From assembly GCA_963741805.1 (NCBI GenBank), contig CAVUJR010000059.1:9242-73241 (forward strand): a DNA stretch of 64,000 nt, read 5' to 3'. The position numbers were made by a program, and so were the translations under genes. The stretch comes from an uncultured Chloroflexia bacterium. GTDB lineage: Bacteria; Chloroflexota; Chloroflexia; Thermomicrobiales; UBA6265. The notes under the pieces are model-generated. The model made no database searches. It saw nothing but the letters and a program-made list of their open reading frames with translations, and was not told the DNA's origin. Positions 43,329-62,035 of this stretch are shown in pieces. How positions within the stretch are numbered: the stretch's first letter is position 1; each line of letters opens with the position of its first letter.

Positions 43329-43647
43329 GGGGGTGTCTCCGGGTGCGGTGGTGGCGTGGTCGGTGGTCGGGTTGGGCGCGGTGGCGGCGGCGTCTGTCGC
43401 GGCCTGCCGCGCTGGGTAGCCTCGGCCTCGCCCCCGAAGGATGTGGTGGTGTGGGTGGTGTCGGGGTGGCGGTCGGCGGGCATGGGAGCTCCGATGGGTG
43501 TGGCGGCATGACAAGAGGCCCGGCGTGGTGCCGGGATGCCTGCCCATTGTGCCAAAGGGGACGCATGCGCGGCAATCCGGGGCGGGATGCGTGGGGTGGC
43601 AAGGCGATCAGGATCATGGTCAATCACGTGTTTGCGGGGGTGGTTGC

Positions 43648-43703
43648 CATAAGGAAGATGTTCAGAACTCCTGTATATGGGGGTTTTGAACATCTTCCTT
43701 ATG
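43648..43703. repeat. palindromic repeat copy a (subfamily 1)
   Basis: CATAAGGAAGATGTTCAGAAC-loop(..TGTATATGGGGG..)-TTTTGAACATCTTCCTTATG. Near-identical to copy f. Confidence 0.85.
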
Positions 43704-43861
43704 TTGGGTGGTTGGGGGCGTTGATGAGGGCAGGGCGCGCCGGCAGGGGGCGAGATGGGCAGCGTCGGCGTACTCCCCGGCCACCGCGGGGCCGGGGCTA
43801 CAAGGCGGGAGATGGGTGCCGAGGCAATGACGCCGTGCGATGCGGCGATGGCTGCAAGGTG

Positions 43862-43908
43862 TCAAGATGTTCAGGTTTTGCCGTATACCGGAAACCTGAA
43901 CATCTTGA
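43862..43908. repeat. palindromic repeat copy b (subfamily 2)
   Basis: TCAAGATGTTCAGGTTT-TGCCGTATACCGG-AAACCTGAACATCTTGA followed by TTTCG. Confidence 0.85.
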
Positions 43909-43964
43909 TTTCGGGTGGGGGTTTTTGGCGTGGTTGCGGGGTTTTCGGGGTGTTAGGGCAATGG

Positions 43965-43983
43965 AGAAACCTGAGCATCTTGA
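43965..43983. repeat. palindromic repeat half-copy c
   Basis: GAGAAACCTGAGCATCTTGA equals only the right arm of subfamily 2. Confidence 0.6.
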
Positions 43984-44034
43984 CGCGCGGGGATATCGAC
44001 CCTTGGGCACCCGAAGGTGACCTGCGGATCGATT

Positions 44035-44061
44035 GGGCAGACATCAGAGTCTGCCCCTACA
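44035..44061. repeat. REP-like hairpin (GGGCAGAC-ATCAGAG-TCTGCCC + CTACA)
   Basis: Hairpin plus CTAC tail, the same architecture as the other REP copies in the window. Confidence 0.6.
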
Positions 44062-44557
44062 CAAGCGAGGGCATGGGGATGGGATGGAGGCAGGGTGCAT
44101 TCCGGTCGGGATGCGGCGGTTGGGTATCGACCTGCGGTCGATCGGCTTCGCCGGGGGATTCCTCCCTACGGTCGGAATGACGGTTTCTTTTTGGTGGGAG
44201 CAAGGTCGGCGGTCGACCCTTACCGAGAGAGGATGGCGGGGCGGGATGCGGCATCTGGGCACGGACCCCGGCCACTGCGGGCGCCACGGTGTGGCTACGC
44301 GGTGGATCTCCGGTACGGAGGGAGCCTGATTTGGTGGGAGGTATGGTGGCGCACTTTGGCGTTGCCGATGTGTATTAAGGGTAGAGGGATCTGTATGAGG
44401 TGGGTATGGGGGGAGTGTGTCCATCGCCGTTAAGGGTGTGTTTAAGGACGGGTTTGGGGTGGCTTCCCTCCCCTGCCCCTGTTCCGGGATGGCCGGGCGT
44501 TTTTCGGCCGGCGGTACGGCGGACGGGCAGAAGGACGAGGGATGTCGGGCAAGATGG

Positions 44558-44604
44558 TCAAGATGTTCAGGTTTCAGGTATATAGGAAAACCTGAACATC
44601 TTGA
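44558..44604. repeat. palindromic repeat copy d (subfamily 2)
   Basis: TCAAGATGTTCAGGTTT-CAGGTATATAGGA-AAACCTGAACATCTTGA followed by TTATCG. Confidence 0.85.
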
Positions 44605-44718
44605 TTATCGTCAATGCCCTGCCTCCCTGGCCGGTGCGTGGCGGGTCCGGGGTGGCGCTGCAGGGCGCTATGAATACCGCCCGTACAGGCGATGCCGGGC
44701 AACAGGGGCCGACATAAA

Positions 44719-44765
44719 AGAAGGTGTTCAGAAGTGTGTGTACAGGGAACTTCTGAGCATCTTGA
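44719..44765. repeat. palindromic repeat copy e (diverged)
   Basis: AGAAGGTGTTCAGAAGT-GTGTGTACAGGGA-ACTTCTGAGCATCTTGA followed by TTTTCG. Confidence 0.75.
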
Positions 44766-44859
44766 TTTTCGTCCCTGGCTTCCGGCCCTCCCTCGCCGGT
44801 GCGTGGCGGGTCCGGCGTTGGTGCGGGATCGGCGTCCTGCCCGCCATGGGTGAGCATGA

Positions 44860-44916
44860 CATAAGGAAGATGATCAGAACTCATGTATATAGGGGGTTTT
44901 GAACATCTTCCTTATG
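44860..44916. repeat. palindromic repeat copy f (subfamily 1)
   Basis: CATAAGGAAGATGATCAGAAC-loop(..TGTATATAGGGGG..)-TTTTGAACATCTTCCTTATG. Confidence 0.85.
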
Positions 44917-45052
44917 GCGACATGCTTCTCCGGCCCTTCCCTCGCCGGTTCGTGGCGGGGCATCGCTCCTGCGATGGGCGTGCGGCAGATGGCGCGGAGC
45001 CTGGCGGGCGATGGACGCGACGCTGGCGGCGAGCGATACAGGAGCGGGAACG

Positions 45053-45307
45053 ATGAGTGACGTGGACACGACGCAGGGGCATGGCGAGGGTCTGGAGCCG
45101 GTCGAGGCGGCGCAGCGGTATGTGGACGAGCGGATCCCGAACTCGGGGTGGAAGGTGGACGAGGTCGCGGGGAACATCGATTTCGGGATGGTGACGGTGG
45201 TGCTGGGGCAGTACCTGAAGTCGGGGGATGTGGAGCACCGGGCGGCGGGGAAAGAGGGTCATGGGCCGACGATCGAGGCGGCGGTGGATGATGCGTTGGC
45301 AAGATAG
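45053..45307 (+). CDS. hypothetical protein (84 aa)
   Basis: AGGAG lies 8 nt upstream of ATG 45053. Strong G/C third-position bias. No family recognised. Confidence 0.5.
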   Translation: MSDVDTTQGHGEGLEPVEAAQRYVDERIPNSGWKVDEVAGNIDFGMVTVVLGQYLKSGDVEHRAAGKEGHGPTIEAAVDDALAR

Positions 45308-45558
45308 CAAAGGACCCACAGGGCTGCACCCATGCGTAGGCGAGAACAATTCGTTCCGCCCTTCGATACGAACCCTCTGCCGACCAAGCATCACATATGT
45401 AATTTGGAGACGGGACGTCCAAACCACGAACCAAGCGAGTGGATGAGTTGGACGTCCTAGAGAGTCTTTGCTTTCACGAATGACGCAGCTAAGTACCTAG
45501 CTGCATCTATAGCAGCCGATTAGGTATGGCTCAGATCTATGCTGTTCAGATCAGATGG

Positions 45559-46431
45559 TCAGTCGTCACCCGAAGCTGGAATAGATTCGCTCATCTTTGG
45601 CGCCCCTCGTGACCGAAACCGGGTATCAACACGCTCCAGAAGCGAGCGAACGCGGCCAATGGAATAGTCGGTCTCGGTTGAGATTTCGCGGATGGATCGG
45701 CCAGATTCGTAGGCGTCCTTCAGGGTGTATGCGACTTGCTGCTGCTCGGCATCAGATAGTCTGCCGAAGAGTGGGAGTTGCGGCACATTGATCTCACCAC
45801 CCGCATAGCCCTTATGCACCTGGCCACGCGGGGCGACCTCTTCGGGGGCCTCGTCGCCCCATACGGCCCACGCGGGCTGCGGATACCGGGCAAACATCTC
45901 CAGATATGGGCCAGGTGAGCATGCCTCGATGAGCGGATATTGCTCATCGGGCTTCCGGGAATGCTCACGCTTGCGGGTCTCGATCATATTGACTTGGGAG
46001 CGTGCGGGAGCAAGGGTCCGCATGCTTCCCCGTACACCGAACAGCAAGAGTTCGGTAACGTTGCGAAAGTAGAAACCAACGCCACGACCGTCCGGTCCTC
46101 CGTCTTTACGCCTCTTTGCCCAGACGACATTTGAGACATAGCGAAAGCCCCATGCCTCCATCACCTTCAGGCCCTCGGGAAGCAACGCATTCGGTACCCA
46201 AAGGTAGAGATGGGCATTCTTCGCGATGACATCTTGCACGCGGAGATCGCAGATATCCTGCAACTCCATGGTGGAGTACCGGTCGAGGCGACGATGCTCA
46301 GGAGCAACCTTGCCGGTACGGTTTGAGAATCGCCAAGGAGGATCGGCGAGGACGGTTTGAAATCCACCTTCGACGGTCGGCAGCGGTGGAGGCGGCTGGA
46401 ACTCGCGAAGCGGCGATGCTTTCTGTGCCAT
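45559..46431 (-). CDS. MT-A70 family DNA N6-adenine methyltransferase with C-terminal HTH domain
   Basis: VLADPPWRF (DPPW catalytic motif), HLYLWVPNALL, and EHSRKPDE. The C-terminal GRSIREISTETDYSIGRVRSLLER is HTH-like. Confidence 0.85.
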   Translation of the reverse strand: MAQKASPLREFQPPPPLPTVEGGFQTVLADPPWRFSNRTGKVAPEHRRLDRYSTMELQDICDLRVQDVIAKNAHLYLWVPNALLPEGLKVMEAWGFRYVSNVVWAKRRKDGGPDGRGVGFYFRNVTELLLFGVRGSMRTLAPARSQVNMIETRKREHSRKPDEQYPLIEACSPGPYLEMFARYPQPAWAVWGDEAPEEVAPRGQVHKGYAGGEINVPQLPLFGRLSDAEQQQVAYTLKDAYESGRSIREISTETDYSIGRVRSLLERVDTRFRSRGAPKMSESIPASGDD

Positions 46432-46447
46432 GGGTTTCCCCGGATTC

Positions 46448-46475
46448 AGATCTTCAGTTTCAATGATTTAGATCT
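46448..46475. promoter_or_regulatory. pair of AGATCT palindromes 22 bp apart in the REase-MTase intergenic region
   Basis: TTCAGATCTTCAG (46448..46453) and TTTAGATCTTAGC (46470..46475) lie immediately upstream of the MTase start. Confidence 0.4.
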
Positions 46476-46502
46476 TAGCACAGATGAGCTGTACGTGCGC
46501 TA

Positions 46503-47195
46503 CTACCAGATGCTCCTACTTTGATCGAACGCATCCCGGATTATCTCGAAACCGGTGACACGGTCGGGCTCAATACCGACGACGATCAGAGGACATTCGC
46601 CTCCACCACCCAGATTGATACGTGGAACGAGCTTCTCCCAATGCGTTGTGGAAGAGCCGTATTTGACGCTTGCCGTGCGCTCGCCAGTTTTGACCGTGCC
46701 ACCGATCACCCGCTGCAACTCGGGACCGCGCGTCACGATGACGCCTACGGCCAACGCGCCCTCCCGGTGCAACGCCATGAAGTTGAGCAGGTCGCGGTCG
46801 AAAAACGGATCCTTATTGTTCCACTCCATCTCGACGGCGATACCTGGGTAAGGGTCACCTGATGACCCGACCGCGAACATGTCGATCTCATGGCCCCGCG
46901 TGGCATGGATCAGTTCGTCATCGATACGTTTTGAGATGGTGATGTTCCGCTTCCCCCACCCCCGCTGCTCGAGAAGAGAGTCAAAACGGCGAGTATGGGA
47001 AGCGCGGCTGCCGCCCCCGGAAAGGATCTCATGGACATCGATATGGAACTCTTCGAGGGCTTCACAAAGATCGCGGAAGTGATGGGGAAAAGCATCACGG
47101 AGGATGAGGTCTGCGTACCTCGTGACACCATAGGCATACCCTATCGGAAGTCCTTCGACGCTAGGTTCACGCACTACCCCTGGCGGATCAGACAT
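46503..47195 (-). CDS. Type II restriction endonuclease, BamHI/BglII-like fold (start uncertain; ORF open to 47363)
   Basis: EIDMFAV..GIAVEMEWNNKDPFFDRDLLNFMAL resembles the D...E-x-E/Q catalytic core plus following helix of BamHI (VGMEFETGN..) and BglII (LVEVQFSNYPF..). Confidence 0.6.
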   Translation of the reverse strand: MSDPPGVVREPSVEGLPIGYAYGVTRYADLILRDAFPHHFRDLCEALEEFHIDVHEILSGGGSRASHTRRFDSLLEQRGWGKRNITISKRIDDELIHATRGHEIDMFAVGSSGDPYPGIAVEMEWNNKDPFFDRDLLNFMALHREGALAVGVIVTRGPELQRVIGGTVKTGERTASVKYGSSTTHWEKLVPRINLGGGGECPLIVVGIEPDRVTGFEIIRDAFDQSRSIW

Positions 47196-47280
47196 GCCTT
47201 CAACCGGGCCTATCAGATCGTCGCTGTTCACGAAGCCACCTCTCCCCCAGATTTCCCTTGATCGGTTCCCAGCGATCTCA

Positions 47281-47709
47281 TTATGGATCCAAGAACGAGG
47301 ATACGCGAACTTTATCGGTGCTCCATCGAGGGAAGGCACCGCGTACCTGCCCTGTCCAGGCATTCGGGCTGACGAGGTTCTGGAAGAACGAGAGGCGGTC
47401 GGCGAGGTTGGTGATCGGGACGGCGGTTTCGGGGGTGAGCCGCGCGACGACGCGGACCTTCAGGCGGCAGGGAAAGTCGTCTTTCCAGATCGAGTGGGTG
47501 GTGTCCTTGTAGGGCGCGGAGACGACTTCGAGGATGCCGACGAAGCGGGAGACGCCGGTGAGGTAGCAGAGCATGTAGTCGCCGACGGCGACGCGTTGGA
47601 CCTGGCTCCAGCGGTTCTCGCGAAAGCCGGTGACGGAGGCTCCTGCGTCGAGGAACTCCTGCCACGTGCCGATGGAGAACAGGTTCAGCCAATACGACCG
47701 TGCCGCCAT
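47281..47709 (-). CDS. EVE (PUA-like) domain protein
   Basis: YWLNLFSIGTWQEF..GDYMLCYLTGVSRFVGILEVVS..FPCRLKVRVV is typical of EVE/ASCH-type PUA-like modified-base readers. Confidence 0.75.
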   Translation of the reverse strand: MAARSYWLNLFSIGTWQEFLDAGASVTGFRENRWSQVQRVAVGDYMLCYLTGVSRFVGILEVVSAPYKDTTHSIWKDDFPCRLKVRVVARLTPETAVPITNLADRLSFFQNLVSPNAWTGQVRGAFPRWSTDKVRVSSFLDP

Positions 47710-48027: not shown

Positions 48028-48296
48028 CGGGATGGGGGACGGTTGGTACGAGGGCGCGGTGGTTGTGGCGCGGGGTTCGGCTTCGCCTGGGGCACCTTCG
48101 CGTTCGCTCAGGGTGACGTCCCTCTTGGGTGCGAGCGGGGTTGGCGGGAGCGGTTTTGGGTGCCGGTGGGAGGACATTCCCTTCGGGAAGTACCTATGCT
48201 ACGGAGGGCGGGGCGCGCCAGATTCGTCCGGATTATTAGCTGATATGATGGATGATAGTTCAGGCGACGAGTTGCAACGTCGCTGAAGGAGGCGCT

Positions 48297-48635
48297 ATGT
48301 CCAGGGCTGTATCAGCCAACGAGGCCAAGAACCGATTGGGATCGCTGCTACGCTCCGTGAGCGCGGAGGGCGAAGAAGTGATCGTGGAGAGCCACGGCAA
48401 GCCCAAGGCGGTGCTGATCTCGTTCGAAGCGTACGAGGAAGTGCTGGCGCTGCGGGAGCAGAAGCGACGGGCCGATGCGCTGGCGGAACTGCGGGCGTTG
48501 CGGGACGAGGTGCGGGCGCGGAACGCATCCATGGGCGCGGACGAGGTGGAGGCGCTGGCCGACCGCGTGTCGCGGGAGATCGTAGACGACCTGGCGGCGT
48601 CGGAGGCGGTGACGTTCGAGCGGGACGGGCGTTAG
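48297..48635 (+). CDS. Phd/YefM-family antitoxin
   Basis: VSANEAKNRLGSLLRSVSAEGEEVIVESHGKPKAVLISFEAYE is the classic Phd/YefM N-domain. Confidence 0.8.
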   Translation: MSRAVSANEAKNRLGSLLRSVSAEGEEVIVESHGKPKAVLISFEAYEEVLALREQKRRADALAELRALRDEVRARNASMGADEVEALADRVSREIVDDLAASEAVTFERDGR

Positions 48636-48638
48636 CCA

Positions 48639-49085
48639 ATGGCGATTCGCGCATTGCTGGATGCGAACGTCTTCATCAGTTACCTCCTCTCCCCTGACGG
48701 GTCCTCGGCGACGATCCGGACCGTAGAGGGCGCGTTTACGGGGGCGTACCAGATGTTGCTGCCCGAGGGGGTGATCGCGGAGCTGCGCGGGAAGACGGCG
48801 ACAAAGCCGTGGTTAGCGGCGCGGATTCGGCCCGAAGAGACGGAGCGACTGGTTCGGCTGCTGACGGCGGTTGCGGAGGTGGTGCCGGAGATCGGGGAGC
48901 CGTTGCCGGAGGTCGGGCGGGACCGGAAGGACGATTACCTGTTCGCGCACGCGGTGGTCGGGCGGGCGGATTTCCTGGTGTCCGGAGACAAGGGCGTGCA
49001 GGCGGTCGGCCAGATCGGCACGGTGCGCGTGGTGAGCCCAGCGGGGTTTCTCGATGCGATCGAGGGCGATGCGGCGGGCACGTAG
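48639..49085 (+). CDS. PIN-domain toxin (TIGR00305-like)
   Basis: LLDANVFISYLL, DRKDDYLFAHAV and DFLVSGDKG are PIN acidic motifs. It starts 3 nt after the antitoxin stop. Confidence 0.85.
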   Translation: MAIRALLDANVFISYLLSPDGSSATIRTVEGAFTGAYQMLLPEGVIAELRGKTATKPWLAARIRPEETERLVRLLTAVAEVVPEIGEPLPEVGRDRKDDYLFAHAVVGRADFLVSGDKGVQAVGQIGTVRVVSPAGFLDAIEGDAAGT

Positions 49086-51796: not shown

Positions 51797-52094
51797 AGAC
51801 CAGCCTCCTCGTCTCCATAACTTCATCCCGGAGGTACGGATTCCCCAGCGCATTCACGGTGATGAGGTCGACTGGCCGTCCGGTAAGGTCTTCCAGGTCG
51901 TGTTGGAGGCCAAAGAAGCGCCGGTGGATGCCGTCATCGTAGTCGCCGAGGTCGACCAGGACGTCGATGTCGCTGGTTTCGGGCTTCCATGCGTCCCTGG
52001 TAGCGGAGCCGAAGACCCAGAGGGCCTTGACGCGGTGCGTGCGGCAGAGGTCGGCGATGGCGTCGCGGTTGTCCTCGATGATGGGGGCGAGCAT
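51765..52094 (-). CDS. mntA: MNT-type nucleotidyltransferase antitoxin
   Basis: LWVFGSATRDAWKPETSDIDVLVDL (GS..DxD NTase motif). Intact. Confidence 0.8.
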   Translation of the reverse strand: MLAPIIEDNRDAIADLCRTHRVKALWVFGSATRDAWKPETSDIDVLVDLGDYDDGIHRRFFGLQHDLEDLTGRPVDLITVNALGNPYLRDEVMETRRLVYGPADAQAAA

Positions 52095-52222
52095 GGCGGC
52101 TCCTCTCGGGCGGGTACGTGTGCGCGGTTCCATGATAGCGGAGCGGCCGGCCGGGAATTGTCGCACGTGAGGCGATGACGAACATCGCCCCTACGATACC
52201 GGGGCGAGATGGGCGGACGCCA

Positions 52223-52267
52223 GTCGATGGGTCGACACGGTCGTGGCTACGGCGGGCGACCCCTACG
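52223..52267. repeat. REP-like element, second copy of 47982..48027
   Basis: GTCGATGGGTCGACACGGTCGTGGCTACGGCGGGCGACCCCTACG. It overlaps the serpin stop codon. Confidence 0.8.
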
Positions 52268-53549
52268 AGGGGTTGGTGACGCGGCCGAGGAAGAGGATGG
52301 CGCCGGTGCGGTCGTCGCGGATGGCGAAGAGGAACGGGCGATCGATGCGGAGCTCGAGGGGTTCTTTCTCCGGCGCGGGGGCGCCCTCCCCGACCATGAT
52401 GACGACGGTGGCGGCGGCGGCCTCGGTGCCGTTCTCGTCGACGGCGATGAAGGCCTTGTGGAGGACGTCGCCGATGGCGAGGGTGTCGTCCGGCGGGGTG
52501 GCGGTCGTCGGCGATCATGCCGGAGAAGTCGGCGCGGTCGGGGTCGAAGGCGTCGGTCATGCCGAGGGCCTGCAGGGTGTCGGCGAGGCTGGCGGAGGTG
52601 TCGAACTCCCATTTCGGCAGGTAGAGGTGGATGCGGGTCCAGGCGAGGGCGTCGATGGCGTCCTGCAGGGTGCCGGGGTCGAGCGATGCCTCGACGGCGT
52701 CGAACTCGCCCTCGTCCGGGAGGATGATCGTCATGCCGAAGCCGGGGGCGGCGTACGGGAGGTCGACGACCTGCATGCCGTCGAGGGCGGCGTAGGCGAA
52801 CGACTCGGTCTGGCGCATGAAGGGCACGTCGACGGGGGTGCCGTCGAGCGGGTGGAAGGGCTCGTCGGCGGTGTTCTCCTCGTCGAAGGTGTTCTGCCAG
52901 GCGCCGTAGAACCAGATGGCGTTGGCGAGGACGAGGCGGGTGAGCGCGGTGATGGCGCCTTCGGGGACGATGTCCTGGATGCGGCCCTCGGTCCCCTCTT
53001 CCACCCAGGCGTTGATGTCGTCGCGGGCGGCGTCGGGCTCGTTCCTGAAGTCTTCGAGCTCGATGCCGGCGCCGTAGGTGGCGTCCAGCGCGTCGATGAA
53101 GGCGGGGTCAAACGGGAAGGTCTGCTCGCCGAAGAGGGCGTTCGCGATGCGGAGGCCGCTTTCGGCGGTGCCGCGATCGGGGTCGGCTTCCTGGTTGCCG
53201 CGGTCGAGGAGATCGGCGGTGAGGGCGGCGAAGGTTTGTGCAGGGTGTCCGCCGGCACGGTGAAGCCGAGGGTGGTGGCCATTTGGGTTGCGGTGTCGCC
53301 ACGGGCGCCGGCGGAGGTCATGGCGAGGGCGAGGGCGATGCTGTAGGGCGAGATGATGAGGTTGCCGGAGCCGGATTCGGCGCGGAGCTCGCGGTAGAGA
53401 TCGAGCGCGAAGCCGGTGAGGCCGCTGGCGAGGGTCGCCGGGCCGGGAATCGGCTCCGGGGAGGCGTCCTGGGCGGTGGCGCGGGTCGCGATGGTGGCGG
53501 CGAGGGCGCTGGCGGCGATGAGGGCGCGGCGGTCGATGGTGTGGTGCAT
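52263..53549 (-). pseudogene. Serpin-family protease inhibitor with Tat-type signal, two apparent frame disruptions (about 53233 and 52491)
   Basis: Three pieces lie in three frames: RRALIAASALAATIATRATAQD..NLIISPYSIALALAM; FAALTADL..DINAWVEEGTEGRIQDIV..LANAIWFYGAW; and LHKAFIAVDENGTEAAAAT..IDRPFLFAIRD. Confidence 0.8.
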
Positions 53550-53808
53550 GGTGGCCTCCGGGGTTGGCGCGGATGGGCGGTCTCTTATGGAAGAACGATC
53601 CGAATCGTCACGCCGTTCCGCATACGGTTATGTATGCCCAAACCAGCATTGACTTTTGATCTGGCGTAAACTTCCGAAAGGACGACACAACGGCGGCGCG
53701 TCGCCATGTTTTCCTGGCGACGCCAATACAGCCACAGGACGAGACGCCCGCGACTGGTTGAGGAGCCGCGCGGGGCCCCGGCCGGCGGCCACGACAGGGA
53801 GCGCACGG

Positions 53809-55818
53809 ATGCCATACACGCCGACCTCCGCCACGGATGCCGCGACAGCCACGCTTGACCGCCTCTCGCAGCTGGCGGGAACGCGGTTCGAGTCGCTGGA
53901 GGACGCGACAGAGGCCGTGCTCGTGACAATGACGGATCTGCTCGGGATGCGGACGTCGTGGGTCACAGAGCTGGACAGCGCGGCGTGTGACCTGACGGTG
54001 AAGCACTCGCACAAGGAACCGGGCGGGTTCGATATGCCGCGCGGTGCCGCGGCACCGGTGGCCGCGACATTCTGTAGCGCGATCATCAACGCCGTCGAGC
54101 CACGGCCGTTGATCATCGAGGACGTCCGCAACGACCCGCATTTTTCCCAATGCCTGGCGGCGAAGACATTCCCGCGCGTGGGGTCGTATGTCGGCGTGCC
54201 GATCATGCTGAGCGACGGGACGCTGCATGGAACGCTCTGCGCGAGCGATGCGGCGCCAACGCGGATCACGCCGCAGCAGGCGCAGTTGCTGTCCGTGCTG
54301 TCGCGGCTGTTGGCGACGCAGATCGAGCGCGACGGGGAGTTCGCGGCCCGCGTCCAGGCGGAGGAGCGCTTCCACGCCTTTATGGATCACACGCCGGCGA
54401 TCGGGTACATGAAGGACCCCGAGGGGCGCTACGTGTTCGCGAACCGGCCCTGGTCCGACGCGTTCGGGCATGAGCCGGGATGGATCATCGGGAAGACGGA
54501 CGTCGACTGGCTCGACGCGGAAACGGCCCGGCAGGTACGCGAGAACGACGCGGCCGTGTTGCGATCGGGGCAAGTACAGAGGCTCTACGAGACGTCTCTC
54601 GACCCGGACGGGAGGCCTCGCTACTGGTACTCGATCAAGTTCCCGGTGACGGACGGCGACGGGGCGGTCTATCTCGGCGGGGTGTCGGCGGACATCACCG
54701 ACCAGCGCGAGCAGGAACTGCAGCGGGCGCTGCTTGCGGAGATCGTCGACAACACGCAGGACGCGATCTACTCGAAGACGCTCGACGACGTGGTGCTGAC
54801 GTGGAACCGCTCGGCGGAACGGCTCTATGGCTACACGGCGGAGGAAATAATCGGGCAGCGGCTGGATATCCTGCTGCCGGCGGACCTCGCGGACGACCTG
54901 GCGCGTATTCATGAGCGGCTGGAGCGTGGTGAGCGCGTGACGCAGTACGAGACGCGGCGGTGCACGAAGGACGGCCGGACCATCGATGTGTCGCTCACGC
55001 TGTCGCTGATCCGGGACGCCGAGGGCGAGATCGCGGGGGTTTCGACAATCGCGCGGGATATCACGGAGCACAAGCGGCTGGTCGCCGAGCGCGACCGGCT
55101 GTACGGCGAGCTGCGCGAAGAGGTGGCGCGGGCGGCGGAGATCCAGGCGCACCTGCTGCCGACGTCGGTGCCGCGGATAGCGGGGTTCGAGTTCGCGGCG
55201 ATATGCCGGCCCGCGCGCGAGGTGGGCGGCGACTTCTTCGACTGGGCGGAGACCGACGACGGCGTGCGACTGGTGCTGGCCGACGTGACCGGCAAGGGCA
55301 TGGCGGCGGCGCTGCTGATGGCGACCACGCGGGCGGCGTTGCGGGCGGCGTCACACCTGCCGGTGGACGAGGCGATCACGACGGTGAACCGGACGCTGAT
55401 GGCGGACCTGGCGTCGTCGGACGCGTTCGTGACGATGTTCCACGCCGAGGTCCGGCCAGACGGTCGGGTGACGTTCACCGACGCCGGCCACGGCATGGCG
55501 CTGATCATCCGGCGGGACGGGGCGGTGGAGCCGCTGCGGCATCGGCAGGTGCCGATCGGCATTATGCCGGAACCACCATATACTGCGACGGAGACGCAAC
55601 TGGAACCGGGCGACACCCTGCTCGTCTATAGCGACGGCCTTCCGGACGCCCGGCCCGACCTGGAGCTCGACCACCCGGCGAACGTGGCGGCGCTCTGCGG
55701 TCGCGGCGGCGACGCGAGGCAGATGCTGGCGTCACTCGAGCGCGTGACTGAGGGCCATGGTCCTCGACCTGACGACCTGACCCTCATCGCCGTTCGACGG
55801 CAGGAGCACCGCGTGTGA
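53809..55818 (+). CDS. GAF-PAS-PAS sensor fused to a PP2C (SpoIIE/RsbU-type) serine phosphatase
   Basis: GAF (..YVGVPIMLSDGTLHGTLCASD). Two PAS S-boxes (..YWYSIKFPV.., ..TIDVSLTLSLIRD). SpoIIE motifs (GGDFFDW, LADVTGKGMAAAL, YSDGLPDA). Confidence 0.85.
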   Translation: MPYTPTSATDAATATLDRLSQLAGTRFESLEDATEAVLVTMTDLLGMRTSWVTELDSAACDLTVKHSHKEPGGFDMPRGAAAPVAATFCSAIINAVEPRPLIIEDVRNDPHFSQCLAAKTFPRVGSYVGVPIMLSDGTLHGTLCASDAAPTRITPQQAQLLSVLSRLLATQIERDGEFAARVQAEERFHAFMDHTPAIGYMKDPEGRYVFANRPWSDAFGHEPGWIIGKTDVDWLDAETARQVRENDAAVLRSGQVQRLYETSLDPDGRPRYWYSIKFPVTDGDGAVYLGGVSADITDQREQELQRALLAEIVDNTQDAIYSKTLDDVVLTWNRSAERLYGYTAEEIIGQRLDILLPADLADDLARIHERLERGERVTQYETRRCTKDGRTIDVSLTLSLIRDAEGEIAGVSTIARDITEHKRLVAERDRLYGELREEVARAAEIQAHLLPTSVPRIAGFEFAAICRPAREVGGDFFDWAETDDGVRLVLADVTGKGMAAALLMATTRAALRAASHLPVDEAITTVNRTLMADLASSDAFVTMFHAEVRPDGRVTFTDAGHGMALIIRRDGAVEPLRHRQVPIGIMPEPPYTATETQLEPGDTLLVYSDGLPDARPDLELDHPANVAALCGRGGDARQMLASLERVTEGHGPRPDDLTLIAVRRQEHRV

Positions 55819-57992
55819 CGCGACGACATCGCCCTGGAATAGACCTTTGCATCCTTGTCATGGTGCTCGGGCTACTACTGGTCCCTTCGTCCCGCCAGCT
55901 CATGGCGCAGACGCCGCAGGCGACGACGCCAGTCGCGTCACCGGTCGTTCCAGCTGACGCGGCGGGCAGTTTCGCGGCGTTCGGCTACGACGATGTGACG
56001 GCGCGAGGCATGTTCGCCTCAACGACCTACACGTTCCCGCTGCCGCTCGCCACCTCGGCGCCGAGCGGGGGCCGCCTCGACCTCCTGTACCGCCACTCCC
56101 CGCTGCTGGTCGGCGATCTCTCGACGATGACCGTGCTCGTCAACGGCCAGAGCGTCGATAGCGTGCACCTCACGGAGGACACGGCGGTATCCGGCCGGCT
56201 GGCGGTCGACCTCCCACCGCTGGAGGACGATGCGGACGCTGTACAGGTCACGCTCTCCTTCCACTTGCGGCTGACGCGCGAGGCGTGTGAGATCCCGGAC
56301 GACCCGGCGCTGTGGGTGACGATCGACAAGGCATCGACGCTGACCTTACCGACGGGGTCCGGCGAGGCGGAGGTCCACGTCGTGGACGCGCCGTCGCTGC
56401 TTCGCCGGAGCGCGCAGGAGACCGGCGCCGGTCCGGTGATCGTCATGCCGGATGCGGGGGCGCTGGATGCGGCGGGCGTGGTGAGCTACCAGCTCGGACA
56501 ATGGTCCGGGATGGCGAACACGCCGGTCTCGCTCGGTGATGTGGTGACCGACATGCCGGCGAGCGACCAGGCGGCGGTGATCGTCGGGACCGGCGGCACG
56601 CTGGAGCTGGGCGACGGCTGGGGCCCGCTCGCGTGGGATGGCGAGCGGTTCACGCTGGATGGCGTGGCAGTGCCGGAGGGCCATGGCGTGCTGGCGATGC
56701 GGCAGCAGCCGGTGCCGCAGATCCTGGTCAGCGGGGCGAACCCGGAGGCGGTGCGACTGGCGGCACGTGCCTTGTCGCGGCCGATGGATTGGCCGACGTT
56801 CGATGCGCCGGTCGTGATCGTTAGCGGCGAGCTGGCGGAGGCGAGCCCGAGCCGCTACGCGTGGCGAGAGGGAGCCGCGAGCTTCGCCCAACTCGGCGGC
56901 TATCGGCAGGACGTGACCGGACCCGGCGAGCACTTCATCGACCTCCCCTACCAGCGGCCGGCGGACTGGGTGCTCCGGGACGGTAGCCAACTGACGCTGG
57001 ACCTGCAGGTCTCTCCGGCTGTGCGGGCCGAGACCTCGTGGGTGCGGGTGACGGTGAACGGGCAGGATATCGGCACGCAACCGCTGCGCGCGCATGAGGA
57101 CGGCGTGCAGACGTACACGTTCGACCTGCCGGCCGACCGGCTGAATGTGGACCTGGACGGGCAGCCGGAGCGGGACCTCATGGTGCAGGTGCGGCTGTTC
57201 CTCGACGACCCGCGCGAGACATGCGAGTCGATCGACCCGGCGGCGACGTGGGCGGCGCTCTTGCCGACATCGGCGATCTCCTTGCCGCATGACAGCAGCG
57301 ACGAGCCGGATCTCGGGCGGTTCCCGGCCGGATTGACCTCCGACGACGATCCGGCAGCAATGACCGTCGTGGTGCCGGACGAGGCGACGGCCGAGGAGCA
57401 GCAGGCGGCGCTCCAGACCCTGGCGGCGGTCGGGCGCTGGAACGCCTGGTCAGCGCCGGTCGAGCCGGACGTGATGACCGCCGGTGAGATCTCCAGCGAG
57501 GCGCTGCAGGGCCGGTCCGTGATTCTGATCGGCGGGCCCGAGCGAAACGGCGCCGCGAGCGAGCTGGGCGACGAGACGCTGCAGGCGATCGCGCCTCCCG
57601 CCTACGCCGAGGTCGACGCGCCCTATGGCGTGCTGGCGCTGGGCGACTCACCATGGTCGGACGGCGACATGGCGCTGCTCGTGGCGGGCTCCAACGACGA
57701 TGGCGAGGGCGTCCTGCTGGCGGCGGCGGCGCTTGGCAACCAGGATGTACTCGCCAGCGTGCGGGGCACGCGCGTCGCGATCACGGGCAATCTCGGGCCA
57801 CAGACGATGGCCGGGGCCGAGCCGTCGAGAGCGATGCGGTCCGACCTCGCGCCGCAGGTGTTGCCGGACGAGCGCCCGTGGATCGAGCGCATCGACGCGT
57901 GGCAGGTCGTCGGGGCGATCGTGCTGGTCGCCTTCCTCGCGCTGGTAATCGGCGTGGTCCAGCTGCGCTGGCTCCGCGGCGGTCGGCGCTAG
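55815..57992 (+). CDS. bcsB: Cellulose synthase regulatory subunit BcsB-like protein
   Basis: N-terminal signal/TM, then RLDLLYRHSPLLVGDLSTMTVLVNGQSV (BcsB repeat pattern), then a C-terminal TM anchor. The GTG overlaps the PP2C stop (GTGA). Confidence 0.7.
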   Translation: MTRRHRPGIDLCILVMVLGLLLVPSSRQLMAQTPQATTPVASPVVPADAAGSFAAFGYDDVTARGMFASTTYTFPLPLATSAPSGGRLDLLYRHSPLLVGDLSTMTVLVNGQSVDSVHLTEDTAVSGRLAVDLPPLEDDADAVQVTLSFHLRLTREACEIPDDPALWVTIDKASTLTLPTGSGEAEVHVVDAPSLLRRSAQETGAGPVIVMPDAGALDAAGVVSYQLGQWSGMANTPVSLGDVVTDMPASDQAAVIVGTGGTLELGDGWGPLAWDGERFTLDGVAVPEGHGVLAMRQQPVPQILVSGANPEAVRLAARALSRPMDWPTFDAPVVIVSGELAEASPSRYAWREGAASFAQLGGYRQDVTGPGEHFIDLPYQRPADWVLRDGSQLTLDLQVSPAVRAETSWVRVTVNGQDIGTQPLRAHEDGVQTYTFDLPADRLNVDLDGQPERDLMVQVRLFLDDPRETCESIDPAATWAALLPTSAISLPHDSSDEPDLGRFPAGLTSDDDPAAMTVVVPDEATAEEQQAALQTLAAVGRWNAWSAPVEPDVMTAGEISSEALQGRSVILIGGPERNGAASELGDETLQAIAPPAYAEVDAPYGVLALGDSPWSDGDMALLVAGSNDDGEGVLLAAAALGNQDVLASVRGTRVAITGNLGPQTMAGAEPSRAMRSDLAPQVLPDERPWIERIDAWQVVGAIVLVAFLALVIGVVQLRWLRGGRR

Positions 57993-57993
57993 G

Positions 57994-60060
57994 GTGGCCC
58001 TGGCGGAGGTCGACGAGGCCGGGAGCGACGCGATACCGGAGCACGCCCGGCGCGATATGCGCGTGCGACAGTACGCGATCCGCGTGCTGATCGTCGCGAA
58101 CCTCCTCCTTGGCACCTACTACATGGTGTGGCGCTACACGGCGTCGATCAACTGGGCGTTCTGGCCGCTGGCGCTGGCACTGCTGGCGGCCGAGACGTAC
58201 AGCTTCATCGACTCATGGCTGATGGGCGCCAGCATGTGGAAATGGCACCGGCGCTTCATCTCGCCCCCGCCAAGGGGTGACGAGACGGTCGATGTCTTCA
58301 TCACCTGCTACAACGAGCCGGTCGATCTGGTCGAGGAGACGGCCCGGGCGGCGTTGAAGCTGAACCATCCCTGCACGGTCTACGTCTGCGACGACGGCGA
58401 CAGCGCCGAGATGCGGGCGATGACGGAGCGGATCGGCTGCAACTACATCACCCGCGCGGCAGTGTGGAAGGGCAAGGAACGCCACGCCAAGGCGGGCAAC
58501 CTGATCAACGCCCTCGACCAGACCGACGGCGAGTACCTGCTCATCCTTGACGCCGACCAGGTGCCGATGCCGGAACTGCTGGACGAGACGCTCGGCTACT
58601 TCAGCGACCCGTCGGTCGCCTTCGTGCAAACGCCACAGTGGTTCAAGAACGTTCCGGAGGGTGACCCGTTCGGGAGCCAGGCGCCACTGTTCTACGGCCC
58701 GATCCAGGAGGCGAAGGACGGCTGGAACGCGGCGTTCTTCTGCGGTTCGAACGCGGTCCTGCGACGGGACGCACTGCTTCACGCCGGGCTGGTGAACTAC
58801 GCCCGGGACCTGCGCGTGCAACTGCAGAACATCCTCAACGAGGCATCGCCACAGCTCGACGCGCTGGCACTCGACCTCGAGACTCGTGGGCAGGAGGCCT
58901 ACCTGCCCGCGATCCGGGAGCTGCAGGACGCGGTGCGTGAGGCCAGGGCCGCGCTCTCCGCCAAGGCACCGCTGGCGGAGCTGACCTACCGCTTCCAACG
59001 GCGCGCGCAAGAGGCCGGGCGACAGATCGTCGGGCAGGACTTCGCCGCGATCGCCGCCGAGCTGGACGACATTCCCGGTCTGGACCCGGAGATCGAGATT
59101 CGTGACAAGATCGAGGGCTTGCTGGAGGACCCTGCGGTACTCGCGGGGTTGACCTCGCGCGAGACCTCGCCGCTGCAGGCGTTCGCCGAGGTTCAGCAGC
59201 TCCTGCTGCGGGTGGACGTCGACCGGGCGTTCGAGGCGATGCCGGTGATGTCGCTATCGACCATCTCGGTCACGGAGGACATGGCCACTGCGATGCGGCT
59301 GCACTCGCTCGGGTACCGTTCGGTGTACCACCCGCGCGTGCTGGTCTACGGGCTGGCGCCGGAGGACTTGCGCACGGCGCTCCAGCAGCGGCTACGGTGG
59401 GCGCAGGGCACGATCCAGGTGATGCTGCGCGAGAACCCGCTCTCCTACCCCGGCCTTAAGCCGATGCAGCGGCTGATGTATTTTGCGACGATGTGGAGCT
59501 ACCTCTCGGGATTCTTCGCGGTCGTCTACCTCATCGCGCCGATCCTGTATCTGTTGTTCGGGTGGCTGCCGGTGAACGCGCTCTCGGACGAGTTCTTCTG
59601 GCGGCTGATCCCCTACCTCATCGTCAACCAGTTACTGTTCACCGTAATCGCGTGGGGCCTGCCGACATGGCGCGGTCAGCAGTACAGCCTGGCCCTGTTC
59701 CCGATCTGGATCAAGGCCGTCACGAGCGCGATCGGAAGCGTCCACTTCGGGCAGAAGCTCGGGTTCGTGGTCACGCCAAAGACGCGCCAGGGCGGCGTGT
59801 CGCTGCAAATCGTGCGGCCGCAGCTCGTATTCATGGGATTGCTCGTCGTCTCCGTGATCGTTGGCGTCGGGCGGCTTGCGCTGGGGCTGACGAACAACGG
59901 GATCCCGGTGCTGGTCAACGTGGTGTGGGCGATCTATGACCTTGTGGCGCTCAGCGTCGTGCTGGACGCCGTGTTCTATCATCCGCCGGAAGATGCGGAC
60001 CTGGTGCCGCTCGAAAGCGCGGCGAGTGTTCACGGGCGCGCCGGCACTGGCGGCAAGTAA
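57994..60060 (+). CDS. bcsA: Cellulose synthase-like family-2 glycosyltransferase (BcsA-like, no PilZ domain, internal insertion)
   Basis: Motifs VFITCYNEP, CDDG, LILDADQVP, FCGSNAVLRR, TEDMATA and QQRLRWAQG (QxxRW). The C-terminus is TM helices only. About 155 extra aa lie before TED. Confidence 0.85.
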   Translation: MALAEVDEAGSDAIPEHARRDMRVRQYAIRVLIVANLLLGTYYMVWRYTASINWAFWPLALALLAAETYSFIDSWLMGASMWKWHRRFISPPPRGDETVDVFITCYNEPVDLVEETARAALKLNHPCTVYVCDDGDSAEMRAMTERIGCNYITRAAVWKGKERHAKAGNLINALDQTDGEYLLILDADQVPMPELLDETLGYFSDPSVAFVQTPQWFKNVPEGDPFGSQAPLFYGPIQEAKDGWNAAFFCGSNAVLRRDALLHAGLVNYARDLRVQLQNILNEASPQLDALALDLETRGQEAYLPAIRELQDAVREARAALSAKAPLAELTYRFQRRAQEAGRQIVGQDFAAIAAELDDIPGLDPEIEIRDKIEGLLEDPAVLAGLTSRETSPLQAFAEVQQLLLRVDVDRAFEAMPVMSLSTISVTEDMATAMRLHSLGYRSVYHPRVLVYGLAPEDLRTALQQRLRWAQGTIQVMLRENPLSYPGLKPMQRLMYFATMWSYLSGFFAVVYLIAPILYLLFGWLPVNALSDEFFWRLIPYLIVNQLLFTVIAWGLPTWRGQQYSLALFPIWIKAVTSAIGSVHFGQKLGFVVTPKTRQGGVSLQIVRPQLVFMGLLVVSVIVGVGRLALGLTNNGIPVLVNVVWAIYDLVALSVVLDAVFYHPPEDADLVPLESAASVHGRAGTGGK

Positions 60061-60089
60061 CGACATGAAAGCGGAGGAGAATACAGACC

Positions 60090-60443
60090 ATGGCGACCTC
60101 GATGACAAGCTCGGTGGACGCGGGGCGGACCGGGATCAGCGTGGTGCATCTCGGCGGGCGGCTCGACATCGCCTCGGCGGCGGAGGCCAAGCGCCTCTTC
60201 GCGGAGACGGTGCAGGGCGGCGTGGCGCGGCTGATCGTGGACCTCGCCGGGATCACCTTTATCGACAGCTCCGGGCTCAGTGCGCTAGTCAGCGGCTTGC
60301 GCTCCTGCCGGCAGGCGGGTGGTGACCTACGGATCGCGGCGGCGGGTGAGCAGCCAACGGCGGTGCTCGCGCTGACATCGCTCGACCAGGTCTTCCGGCT
60401 CTACCCGACCGTGGCGGAGGCAGTCGATGGGTTTGCAGGCTGA
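60090..60443 (+). CDS. STAS-domain anti-sigma-factor antagonist (SpoIIAA/RsbV-like)
   Basis: LIVDLAGITFIDSSGLSALV carries the conserved phosphorylatable Ser in the DSSG motif. Confidence 0.85.
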   Translation: MATSMTSSVDAGRTGISVVHLGGRLDIASAAEAKRLFAETVQGGVARLIVDLAGITFIDSSGLSALVSGLRSCRQAGGDLRIAAAGEQPTAVLALTSLDQVFRLYPTVAEAVDGFAG

Positions 60444-60894
60444 GCACCCGCTTGTCCAGATCGAACGCGACGTGAGCGCGAGCCTCGACGGACTTGCGAC
60501 CGTGCACGAGGCGCTGGATGACTACTGGAACGCGATCGAGGTTGCCGGTGGTCCCCATGTCGATAGCATGCGGCAGGTTCTTTTCGCCTCCGCGGTCGCA
60601 GAGATCGCCGGGAACGTCGTGCGCCATGCCTATCCGGACGCAGGCGCCGACGCCACCTTTCGCATTCGCCTGCACTACTTTCCGGACAGGCTGGTGGCGA
60701 CCTTGCTCGACCACGGGTTGCCGTTCGACTTCACCCCGCCGACGCGCACGGCCGATATGCGGGACGCGCTCGACGATCTCGACCTCGACCACGGCTGGGG
60801 GCTGCCGATCGTCCAGGCGGCGACCGACGAGCTGGACTATGCGCGTTTACCGGACGGATCGAATCGATGGCGGCTGGTTAAGCTGCTGTCGTGA
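60427..60894 (+). CDS. RsbW/SpoIIAB-like anti-sigma serine kinase (HATPase_c_2)
   Basis: AVAEIAGNVVRHAY (N-box) and DHGWGLPIV (G-box). It overlaps the STAS gene by 17 nt. Confidence 0.8.
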   Translation: MGLQAEHPLVQIERDVSASLDGLATVHEALDDYWNAIEVAGGPHVDSMRQVLFASAVAEIAGNVVRHAYPDAGADATFRIRLHYFPDRLVATLLDHGLPFDFTPPTRTADMRDALDDLDLDHGWGLPIVQAATDELDYARLPDGSNRWRLVKLLS

Positions 60895-61497: not shown

Positions 61498-61654
61498 TGG
61501 TCAGCGGGCGCGTTGACAGCACCTGTGACGGAGTGCGAGATTTGCCCATCGGACGTGGCCGGATGAGGGCCTGTCAGGATATGACTCTCCCTGGAGGGAC
61601 GCCATGGGCGGCAGGAGCGACGCGAATCCCGGCAAACGCGCAACGCCGGAACAG

Positions 61655-62035
61655 ATGATCCGCAAGCATGTGTACGTGGTGAACGGATCACCGGTGTTCC
61701 TCGATATCGTCCGGCAACTGTTGCAGGACGAAAGCTACAACGTCACGACGACCAACTTCGTGCCGCTGTCGTTCGAGACGATCGAGGCGGCGCGGCCTGA
61801 CATGATCATCATCGACCTGGTGCTCGGCGAGCATGCCGGATGGGATCTGCTGAGCCAGTTGCGATCGGCGGCAACCACGCGGGATATCCCGTTACTCCTG
61901 ATCTCGACGACGCCGGAGTTGCTGGCCGAGGTGATCGAACGACATGAAGAGTTCGGCGGCGACCGGCACCTGCTGAAGCCGTTCGACCTGGACGACCTGC
62001 TCGAGACGATCCGGGAGCTGATCGGCGACGCGTAG
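61655..62035 (+). CDS. Single-domain response-regulator receiver (atypical acidic pocket)
   Basis: PDMIIIDLVL, LLLIST and LLKPF are conserved, but beta1 reads VYVVNGSP instead of the usual DD/ED pair. Confidence 0.75.
   Translation: MIRKHVYVVNGSPVFLDIVRQLLQDESYNVTTTNFVPLSFETIEAARPDMIIIDLVLGEHAGWDLLSQLRSAATTRDIPLLLISTTPELLAEVIERHEEFGGDRHLLKPFDLDDLLETIRELIGDA

Follow-up and report, generated by a model that had tools for sequence, protein, structure and literature searches.

The 64-kb window analysed here, a stretch of 64,000 nucleotides from an uncultured Chloroflexia bacterium, contains between positions 53809 and 60894 five open reading frames (ORFs) on the + strand, in which the GC content at third codon positions (GC3) ranges from 0.81 to 0.89, a bias that is typical of real genes. 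A preliminary description of the sequence had listed them as co-directional genes for a GAF-PAS-PAS-PP2C phosphatase, BcsB, a BcsA-like glycosyltransferase of family GT2, a STAS protein with a DSSG motif and an RsbW-like kinase, and the Pfam searches agree on all five. The first gene (53809..55818) encodes a sensor phosphatase of 669 amino acids (aa) with the organization GAF-PAS-PAS-PP2C/SpoIIE and is followed by the gene of a BcsB-like subunit of 725 aa (55815..57992; PF03170, 5.9e-55), which has an N-terminal signal/transmembrane segment and a C-terminal transmembrane anchor. The third gene (57994..60060) specifies a BcsA-type processive GT2 synthase of 688 aa without PilZ domain, which was recognized by the Pfam models GT2/Cellulose_synt and by NCBIfam, and whose best-named relatives are found in the Chloroflexota, near Thermomicrobiales (67% identity). 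The last two genes encode a single-domain STAS protein of 117 aa (60090..60443; PF01740, 2.1e-21) and an RsbW/SpoIIAB-like serine kinase of 155 aa (60427..60894; PF13581 (HATPase_c_2), 9.5e-13). The genes were said to be joined throughout by overlapping or 1-nucleotide (nt) junctions, which holds for three of the four: the stop of the phosphatase gene and the start of bcsB overlap by 4 nt (GTGA), the gap between bcsB and the synthase gene is 1 nt and the STAS and kinase genes overlap by 17 nt, but the synthase and STAS genes lie 29 nt apart, with the ribosome-binding site GGAGGAG inside the gap. Start and stop codons that overlap between neighbouring genes of the cassette were found in several relatives as well, which suggests that translation of these genes may be coupled.

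The textbook switch of bacterial cellulose synthase is cyclic-di-GMP (c-di-GMP) bound by PilZ, a C-terminal domain that had been reported as missing here. The profile searches bear this out, as PF07238 gave no match in the synthase even at E<=10, and precomputed Pfam annotations showed it in none of ~156 homologues among the matches listed. The NCBIfam model of UDP-forming cellulose synthase (TIGR03030, CelA) scored 337 bits, below its cutoff of 699, with the match broken in two by an insert. When compared with PDB sequences by phmmer, the synthase matched BcsA of E. coli and Rhodobacter (1.5e-58), and its residues 27-265 and 422-654 aligned to residues 197-447 and 450-683 of the E. coli protein. 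The alignment stops at around BcsA residue 683-694, which we take from the BcsA structures to be the start of the PilZ domain, and leaves ~34 synthase residues; judged from this alignment, the synthase appears to terminate where the PilZ domain of BcsA starts. The catalytic and gating motifs, which comprise DDG (133-135), DAD (186-188), FFCGS (248-252), TED (427-429), QRLRW (465-469) and the gating-loop sequence FVVTPK (591-596), were invariant or near-invariant in two homologue alignments. The AlphaFold2 (AF2) model of the synthase reached a predicted local distance difference test score (pLDDT) of 82 and a predicted template modelling score (pTM) of 0.81, and Foldseek placed E. coli and Rhodobacter BcsA on top (E 9.3e-29 to 1e-22, TM 0.6), with plant CesA ranking after BcsA. 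The predicted fold is thus BcsA-like, a GT-A domain joined to a transmembrane channel. The BcsA-BcsB systems of Rhodobacter sphaeroides and E. coli share this fold, the DDG/DAD/TED/QxxRW/FFCGS/FxVTxK motifs and the BcsB partner with the window system. They differ from it in that the window synthase lacks the C-terminal PilZ, and hence the c-di-GMP switch, and has a helical insert of 156 aa separating FFCGS from TED, in that bcsB here lies 5' of bcsA and most relatives do without it, and in that BcsC, BcsZ and BcsQ are missing from the window system. Given the homology to BcsA and the presence of BcsB, the polymer made by the window organism is probably a beta-glucan or cellulose. A review of the Bcs systems (PMC8892547) describes BcsA homologues of Roseiflexus and Synechococcus that lack PilZ and bear a distinct module in place of the plant-conserved region (PCR) module, and remarks that the PCR module and PilZ take up overlapping space in the folds. 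The PilZ-less homologue of Roseiflexus castenholzii belongs to the same family as the window synthase (~60% identity); the review draws no tie between these homologues and adjacent STAS, kinase and PP2C genes (PMC8892547).

The three regulatory proteins belong to the same families as those of the RsbU-RsbV-RsbW and SpoIIE-SpoIIAA-SpoIIAB partner switches, with which they share the DSSG serine, the N and G2 boxes and a sensor-bearing PP2C. In the phosphatase, Pfam identified a SpoIIE domain (aa 483-664, 4.8e-38), PAS_4/PAS domains (aa 193-420) and a GAF domain (aa 30-172, 5.3e-12), and its translation contains the PP2C metal-binding motifs GGDFFD, DVTGKG, SDG and DDLT. The STAS motif reads D59-S60-S61-G62 and was kept in all 75 aligned orthologues, one S61T being the sole deviation. 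Its first serine, S60 (codon 60267-60269), is the candidate phospho-serine, as in SpoIIAA and RsbV the phosphate is accepted by the first serine of this motif. The kinase gave, beside PF13581, a weak match to RsbW; its N-box residues E59, N63 and H67 and the G2 residues G123 and G125 were retained in 70-71 of the 71 orthologues, and its G1 motif (D95-x-G97) is intact, with an Asp aligning at that position in just 41/71. Going by these motifs, the three regulators appear to be functional.

A profile of the synthase family was scanned over one genome per species and the best 80 loci were taken; relatives of the synthase occur in at least 588 species-level genomes. The loci came from Roseiflexus, Chloroflexus and Thermomicrobiales within the Chloroflexota and from Arthrobacter, Pseudarthrobacter, Nocardioides, Rhodococcus, Gordonia, Mycolicibacterium, Microbacterium, Cellulomonas and Kocuria within the Actinomycetota. 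The window proteins were compared with the loci using tblastn and phmmer, de novo ORF calls were clustered, and a neighbour was counted when it lay within 3.5 kb of the synthase gene, which was done for 85 sources including the window. We found that the linkage of the PP2C, synthase, STAS and kinase genes is strongly conserved in relatives, as the proposal in the preliminary description requires: a STAS gene was present in 79 of the 85 sources, directly 3' of the synthase gene, a PP2C gene in 73, directly 5' of the synthase gene or of bcsB, and a kinase gene in 71, and all three occurred together in 68. The usual order is PP2C-(BcsB)-synthase-STAS-kinase, almost always on a single strand. Missing partners were mostly due to contig ends or divergent kinases, and the module was truly absent at three loci only (L008, L079 and L080). 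Considering the fact that the arrangement was found again in dozens of genomes and two phyla, it is far beyond chance. The cassette was cross-checked in nine neighbourhoods with independent gene calls and precomputed Pfam annotation. These include Roseiflexus (L083; histidine kinase, REC-SpoIIE, BcsB, GT2, STAS, kinase), a metagenome-assembled genome (MAG) of Thermomicrobiales (L089; GAF-PAS-SpoIIE, BcsB, GT2, STAS, kinase, OpgC), a relative with 73% identity (L088; PAS-SpoIIE, GT2, STAS, kinase) and a Caldilineaceae MAG (L090) that has the cassette, the latter two without BcsB. Among the Actinomycetota, the composition was GH26, GAF-SpoIIE, GT2, STAS and kinase in both Rhodococcus (L085) and Mycobacterium sp. 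(L086), and REC-SpoIIE, GT2, STAS, kinase and GH26 in Arthrobacter (L087). Since the accessory genes vary among the Pfam-annotated loci while the genes of PP2C, synthase, STAS and kinase persist, these four constitute the invariant core. With 45-60% identity between phyla, the STAS protein equals the synthase in its degree of conservation. In the phosphatase the catalytic domain is constant and the sensors vary, from REC, GAF and GAF-PAS to GAF-PAS-PAS and, in Chloroflexus, Hpt-REC-GGDEF-REC. In a Chloroflexus MAG (L004, 2993-5833) the full order is Hpt-REC-GGDEF-REC-SpoIIE, so that here the phosphatase of a PilZ-less synthase bears a fused diguanylate cyclase domain. A constant core with varying sensors and accessories is characteristic of signalling cassettes whose output is fixed.

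In a classical partner switch that output would be a sigma factor. The whole window and 84 loci (+/-8-9 kb) were searched by phmmer, in all six-frame ORFs, with sequences of SigB, SigF and RpoE that served as probes only. The 64-kb window gave no match to a SigB/F-type or ECF-type sigma factor, and the claim that none is encoded in or next to the operon can be extended to the 84 orthologous loci, in which no cognate sigma factor was found. The single strong match (L010) was a primary, HrdB/RpoD-like housekeeping factor on the opposite strand at a distance of 3.4 kb, the proximity of which to the cassette is coincidental, and L065 gave a single weak ECF-like match; the nine Pfam-annotated neighbourhoods contained no member of the Sigma70 family. 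The main rival explanation is that the switch acts, in the classical manner, on a sigma factor encoded elsewhere, with the kinase as anti-sigma factor, the STAS protein as its antagonist and the operon as a member of that regulon, possibly autoregulated, so that control would be transcriptional. The STAS protein indeed matches the RsbV/SpoIIAA family and the kinase the RsbW family, the orthologous kinases (137-163 aa) have the size of anti-sigma factors and Actinomycetota have numerous orphan paralogues of RsbW/RsbV whose targets are unlinked sigma factors. Nevertheless, we regard this explanation as unlikely: the sigma factor of a classical module is usually encoded in the same operon, whereas no SigB/F-type or ECF sigma factor was found in the window or within +/-8-9 kb in the 84 orthologous loci, and the module instead sits among genes for a membrane synthase, to which the linkage is specific and includes overlapping start and stop codons.

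A further argument against a transcriptional output is provided by a natural fusion of the two proteins, which is hard to reconcile with soluble transcription-factor partners. The protein P0079 is an 804-aa synthase of the same family with a STAS domain, including DSSG, fused at its C-terminus, where it occupies the position that is held by PilZ in BcsA. P0079 stands for 30 member sequences, from two contigs in two European Nucleotide Archive (ENA) assemblies. In the window, STAS protein and synthase are encoded by separate genes, unlike in the STAS-glycosyltransferase fusions of the All4160/XssP type. Taken together, the P0079 fusion and the four-gene core with its exchangeable sensors favour a direct link between STAS protein and synthase, as far as sequence comparison can indicate.

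The insert that divides the GT domain of the synthase (aa ~262-421, 58777..59256, as defined by alignment to E. coli BcsA) could be part of such a link. E. coli BcsA has 2 residues between the FFCGS and TED motifs, where the window protein has the 156 aa of the insert, and all 85 homologues examined possess it, with a length of 144-166 aa. In the AF2 model it forms long, confident helices (258-297, 301-322 and 327-358) that are followed by a less confident helical stretch. It belongs to no Pfam family and yielded only a weak coiled-coil-like match, and when it was used alone as a query against 1.84 billion representatives, 27 matches were obtained, all of them synthase-sized proteins or fragments; contexts other than synthases were not recovered in that search. 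The idea that the insert is a sigma mimic was examined by hhalign of the insert profile against an alignment of SigB, SigF and HrdB and, at a probability of 1.6%, is unsupported. The sequence of the insert changes too quickly to be informative by itself. It does contain several near-invariant residues, namely T331, D349, R389, S392-P-L394 and E414, and among these the Thr/Ser residues T331 and S392 (followed by P-L) would be conceivable targets of the kinase. According to this alternative, the kinase phosphorylates the synthase (e.g. at T331 or S392), the STAS protein is only a competitive substrate or inhibitor of the kinase and the PP2C dephosphorylates the synthase, and the conserved N and G2 boxes of the kinase and the PP2C gene that adjoins the synthase gene (73/85 sources) are in line with it. 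Considering the invariant DSSG, which points to the STAS protein as the genuine kinase substrate, and the two Chloroflexota loci L005 and L009, where STAS is kept without a detectable kinase, we find it rather improbable. In addition, the RsbW/SpoIIAB-family kinases phosphorylate, to our knowledge, STAS serines and no other substrates.

BcsB, GH26, OpgC-like acyltransferases and a PIG-L deacetylase are lineage-specific accessories of the core. BcsB is limited to some of the Chloroflexota loci (7 of the 85 sources; L083, L089) and is absent from L088, L090 and the Actinomycetota loci. The preliminary description had drawn attention to the position of BcsB before BcsA; this order is correct for the window, but both BcsB and the order fall outside the conserved core. 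A GH26 glycoside hydrolase is recurrent in 28 loci, which belong to the Actinomycetota and the fusion-bearing Thermomicrobiales lineage, and is absent from the window operon; examples are found in L085 (4817-5803), L086 (4936-5796), L087 (9867-11171) and L081 (744-1946 and 4173-5246). The enzyme may fulfil the role of BcsZ or may be a sign of a polymer other than plain cellulose. At L009 (10009-10881) and L005 (9410-10375) a gene for a PIG-L family de-N-acetylase is located between the synthase and STAS genes, which hints at a polymer containing N-acetylglucosamine (GlcNAc) in that lineage. Genes for OpgC-like or Acyl_transf_3 acyltransferases adjoin the cassette at L089 (11000-12307) and L087 (11208-13685), which suggests a possible acyl modification of the polymer.

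The variability of these neighbours bears on the view that synthase and switch are merely co-located, without regulatory coupling, and that the module serves a stress response or a diguanylate cyclase (cf. HsbA/HsbD and SiaABCD). Non-sigma outputs of partner switches, among them diguanylate cyclases, are on record (PMC6482189, PMC7647112), and the Chloroflexus phosphatase carries a GGDEF domain. This view is difficult to combine with a synteny that is held across two phyla while every other neighbour changes, with a synthase that has no PilZ to read c-di-GMP and with the existence of a synthase-STAS fusion, and we consider it very improbable.

We therefore arrive at a sigma-less partner-switching cassette of which the output is the polysaccharide synthase itself, because the core is fixed and its sensors are exchangeable, start and stop codons overlap, a linked sigma factor is lacking and the fusion exists. 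On the strength of these comparisons and of the analogous systems, the balance of probability lies slightly on the side of this reading. The kinase would phosphorylate S60 of the STAS protein and thereby hold it inactive. A signal perceived by the GAF-PAS-PAS region, or in other lineages by REC together with a histidine kinase or by GAF, would activate the phosphatase, and the activated PP2C would dephosphorylate the STAS protein, whose unphosphorylated form is taken to be the active one because of the analogy with SypA and All4160. In the variant that we favour, unphosphorylated STAS would dock on the C-terminus or the helical insert of the synthase from the cytosolic side, in the space that PilZ takes up in BcsA, and the FxVTxK gating loop would be released. 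In the main other variant, a true partner switch, the kinase would bind, inhibit or phosphorylate the synthase until it is sequestered by the STAS protein. In both cases, the outcome would be a c-di-GMP-independent, post-translational on/off control of the secretion of a beta-glucan, probably cellulose, with BcsB as the putative membrane partner of the synthase in the window organism. In its most specific form, with the synthase in the role of the sigma factor, the insert and the C-terminus at the PilZ position as docking site for the STAS protein or the kinase, and serine phosphorylation in place of c-di-GMP as the gate of extrusion, the proposal is tentative and has somewhat less than an even chance of being correct.

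Several observations weigh against the synthase as the output. That STAS phosphorylation stands in for c-di-GMP, and that the synthase is the direct target of the STAS protein or the kinase, is what we infer; RsbW-like kinases are the classic anti-sigma factors, and the true target could be a sigma factor encoded elsewhere. Only one lineage of Thermomicrobiales has the fusion: a search with P0079 recovered no other synthase-STAS fusion among the best matches, and a profile of nine STAS orthologues gave no further fusion among its best 120 matches, all of which were single-domain STAS proteins. In the Arthrobacter loci L079 and L080 the synthase retains the insert without a linked module, and for that reason the presence or absence of insert and module cannot be used as a correlation. 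The incomplete alignment of the G1 aspartate may mean that some of the orthologous kinases are degenerate, or that this stretch is misaligned. Furthermore, the GH26 and PIG-L neighbours elsewhere hint that the polymer is not necessarily plain cellulose everywhere. Finally, c-di-GMP may still feed in for some lineages, because the Chloroflexus phosphatase carries GGDEF.

Upstream, the operon is flanked by a divergent, frameshifted serpin gene (51934-53549, - strand), which is broken over at least two reading frames: ORF 52731-53549 matches positions 3-60 of the Pfam Serpin profile, and ORF 51934-53004 matches its positions 133-301. The split gene is either a pseudogene or the result of a sequencing frameshift. 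The divergent intergenic region between this gene and the phosphatase gene (53550..53808) is the presumed location of the operon promoter, and the sequence GGGAG precedes the phosphatase ATG at 53809 by 6 nt. A sequence scan revealed no consensus sigma-70 promoter in 53550..53808, and neither a promoter-like site 5' nor a terminator-like site 3' of the operon; the total number of sites in that scan did not exceed the expectation from shuffled sequence. Searches for tRNAs and Rfam families in and around the operon gave nothing informative. The downstream neighbours encode a cupin, a REC-only protein, a DUF202 protein and a HAD hydrolase. The gene of the stand-alone REC protein (61604-62035, + strand) starts 0.7 kb 3' of the kinase gene, and the matches of its product include, with a score below the cutoff, the exopolysaccharide response regulator EpsW of Myxococcus; the gene is not kept beside the cassette elsewhere and a tie to the cassette is unproven. 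Elsewhere in the window, a stretch of ~2.4 kb with a lower GC content (~57%) and no convincing gene is located at ~43100-45500, 5' of alaS, and contains at least 4-5 copies of ~49-nt palindromic repeats (AAGATGTTCAGG...CCTGAACATCTT). A gene for an MT-A70 methyltransferase with a helix-turn-helix (HTH) domain adjoins that of a BglII-like restriction endonuclease at 45559-47363 (- strand), and the two constitute a restriction-modification pair in the low-GC island. A Phd/YefM antitoxin gene and, 3 nt behind it, a gene for a PIN-domain toxin are located at 48252-49085 (+ strand).

Partner-switch-like control of polysaccharides is already known from SypE/SypA of Vibrio and HmpUVW of Nostoc. SypE contains a REC domain in its centre, and the 18 genes of the syp locus form a system of the Wzx/Wzy type and not a synthase-dependent one. 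In Vibrio fischeri the unphosphorylated STAS protein, whose gene lies inside the polysaccharide locus, promotes polysaccharide-dependent biofilm via a non-sigma target, and SypE alone acts as both kinase and phosphatase (PMC8256260), whereas the window system uses separate proteins for these activities. The preliminary description took SypE/SypA for the sole related precedent, which is not the case: in the HenR/All4160/Alr3423 system of Anabaena (PMC13555669; bioRxiv 10.64898/2026.04.08.717354) a phosphatase of the SpoIIE type and a kinase of the RsbW type decide whether a STAS domain is phosphorylated, and this domain, active in its unphosphorylated form, governs a polysaccharide glycosyltransferase instead of a sigma factor (PMC13555669, Mol Microbiol 2026). 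In All4160 the STAS domain forms the N-terminal part of a fusion with a Hep-pathway glycosyltransferase, and the genes of the regulators lie dispersed, whereas the window system has a separate STAS protein (with a C-terminal fusion in one lineage), a processive BcsA-type enzyme and a single operon. We found no paper in the full-text literature, the coverage of which is incomplete so that a prior mention is possible, that ties BcsA-type synthases to STAS/RsbW/PP2C genes, and within this limit the impression that the gene arrangement had not been described still stands. In the databases the relatives carry generic names, like 'glycosyltransferase', 'cellulose synthase (UDP-forming)' and 'anti-sigma factor antagonist'. 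New here is that a cellulose-type synthase, processive and lacking PilZ, is coupled to a partner switch without a sigma factor, an arrangement conserved in two phyla.

If the proposed control is real, the secretion of synthase-dependent exopolysaccharides would be gated by a serine kinase, a phosphatase and a STAS protein in at least 588 species-level genomes of two large phyla, and 'orphan' sigma-less partner switches like those of SypA and HmpV would gain a concrete target. With its 4-5 genes the cassette is small, and since Arthrobacter and Rhodococcus are among the genera that have it, the hypothesis should be open to direct testing. The cellulose machinery of mycobacteria is described as unidentified in the Bcs review (PMC8892547), and the cassette would supply candidates, both synthase and regulator genes, for the production of matrix by soil and clinical Actinomycetota. 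More generally, synthase-dependent exopolysaccharides would then be under a hitherto undescribed type of control that is both ancient and widespread, and that extends to relatives of the synthase in Rhodococcus, Gordonia and mycobacteria.

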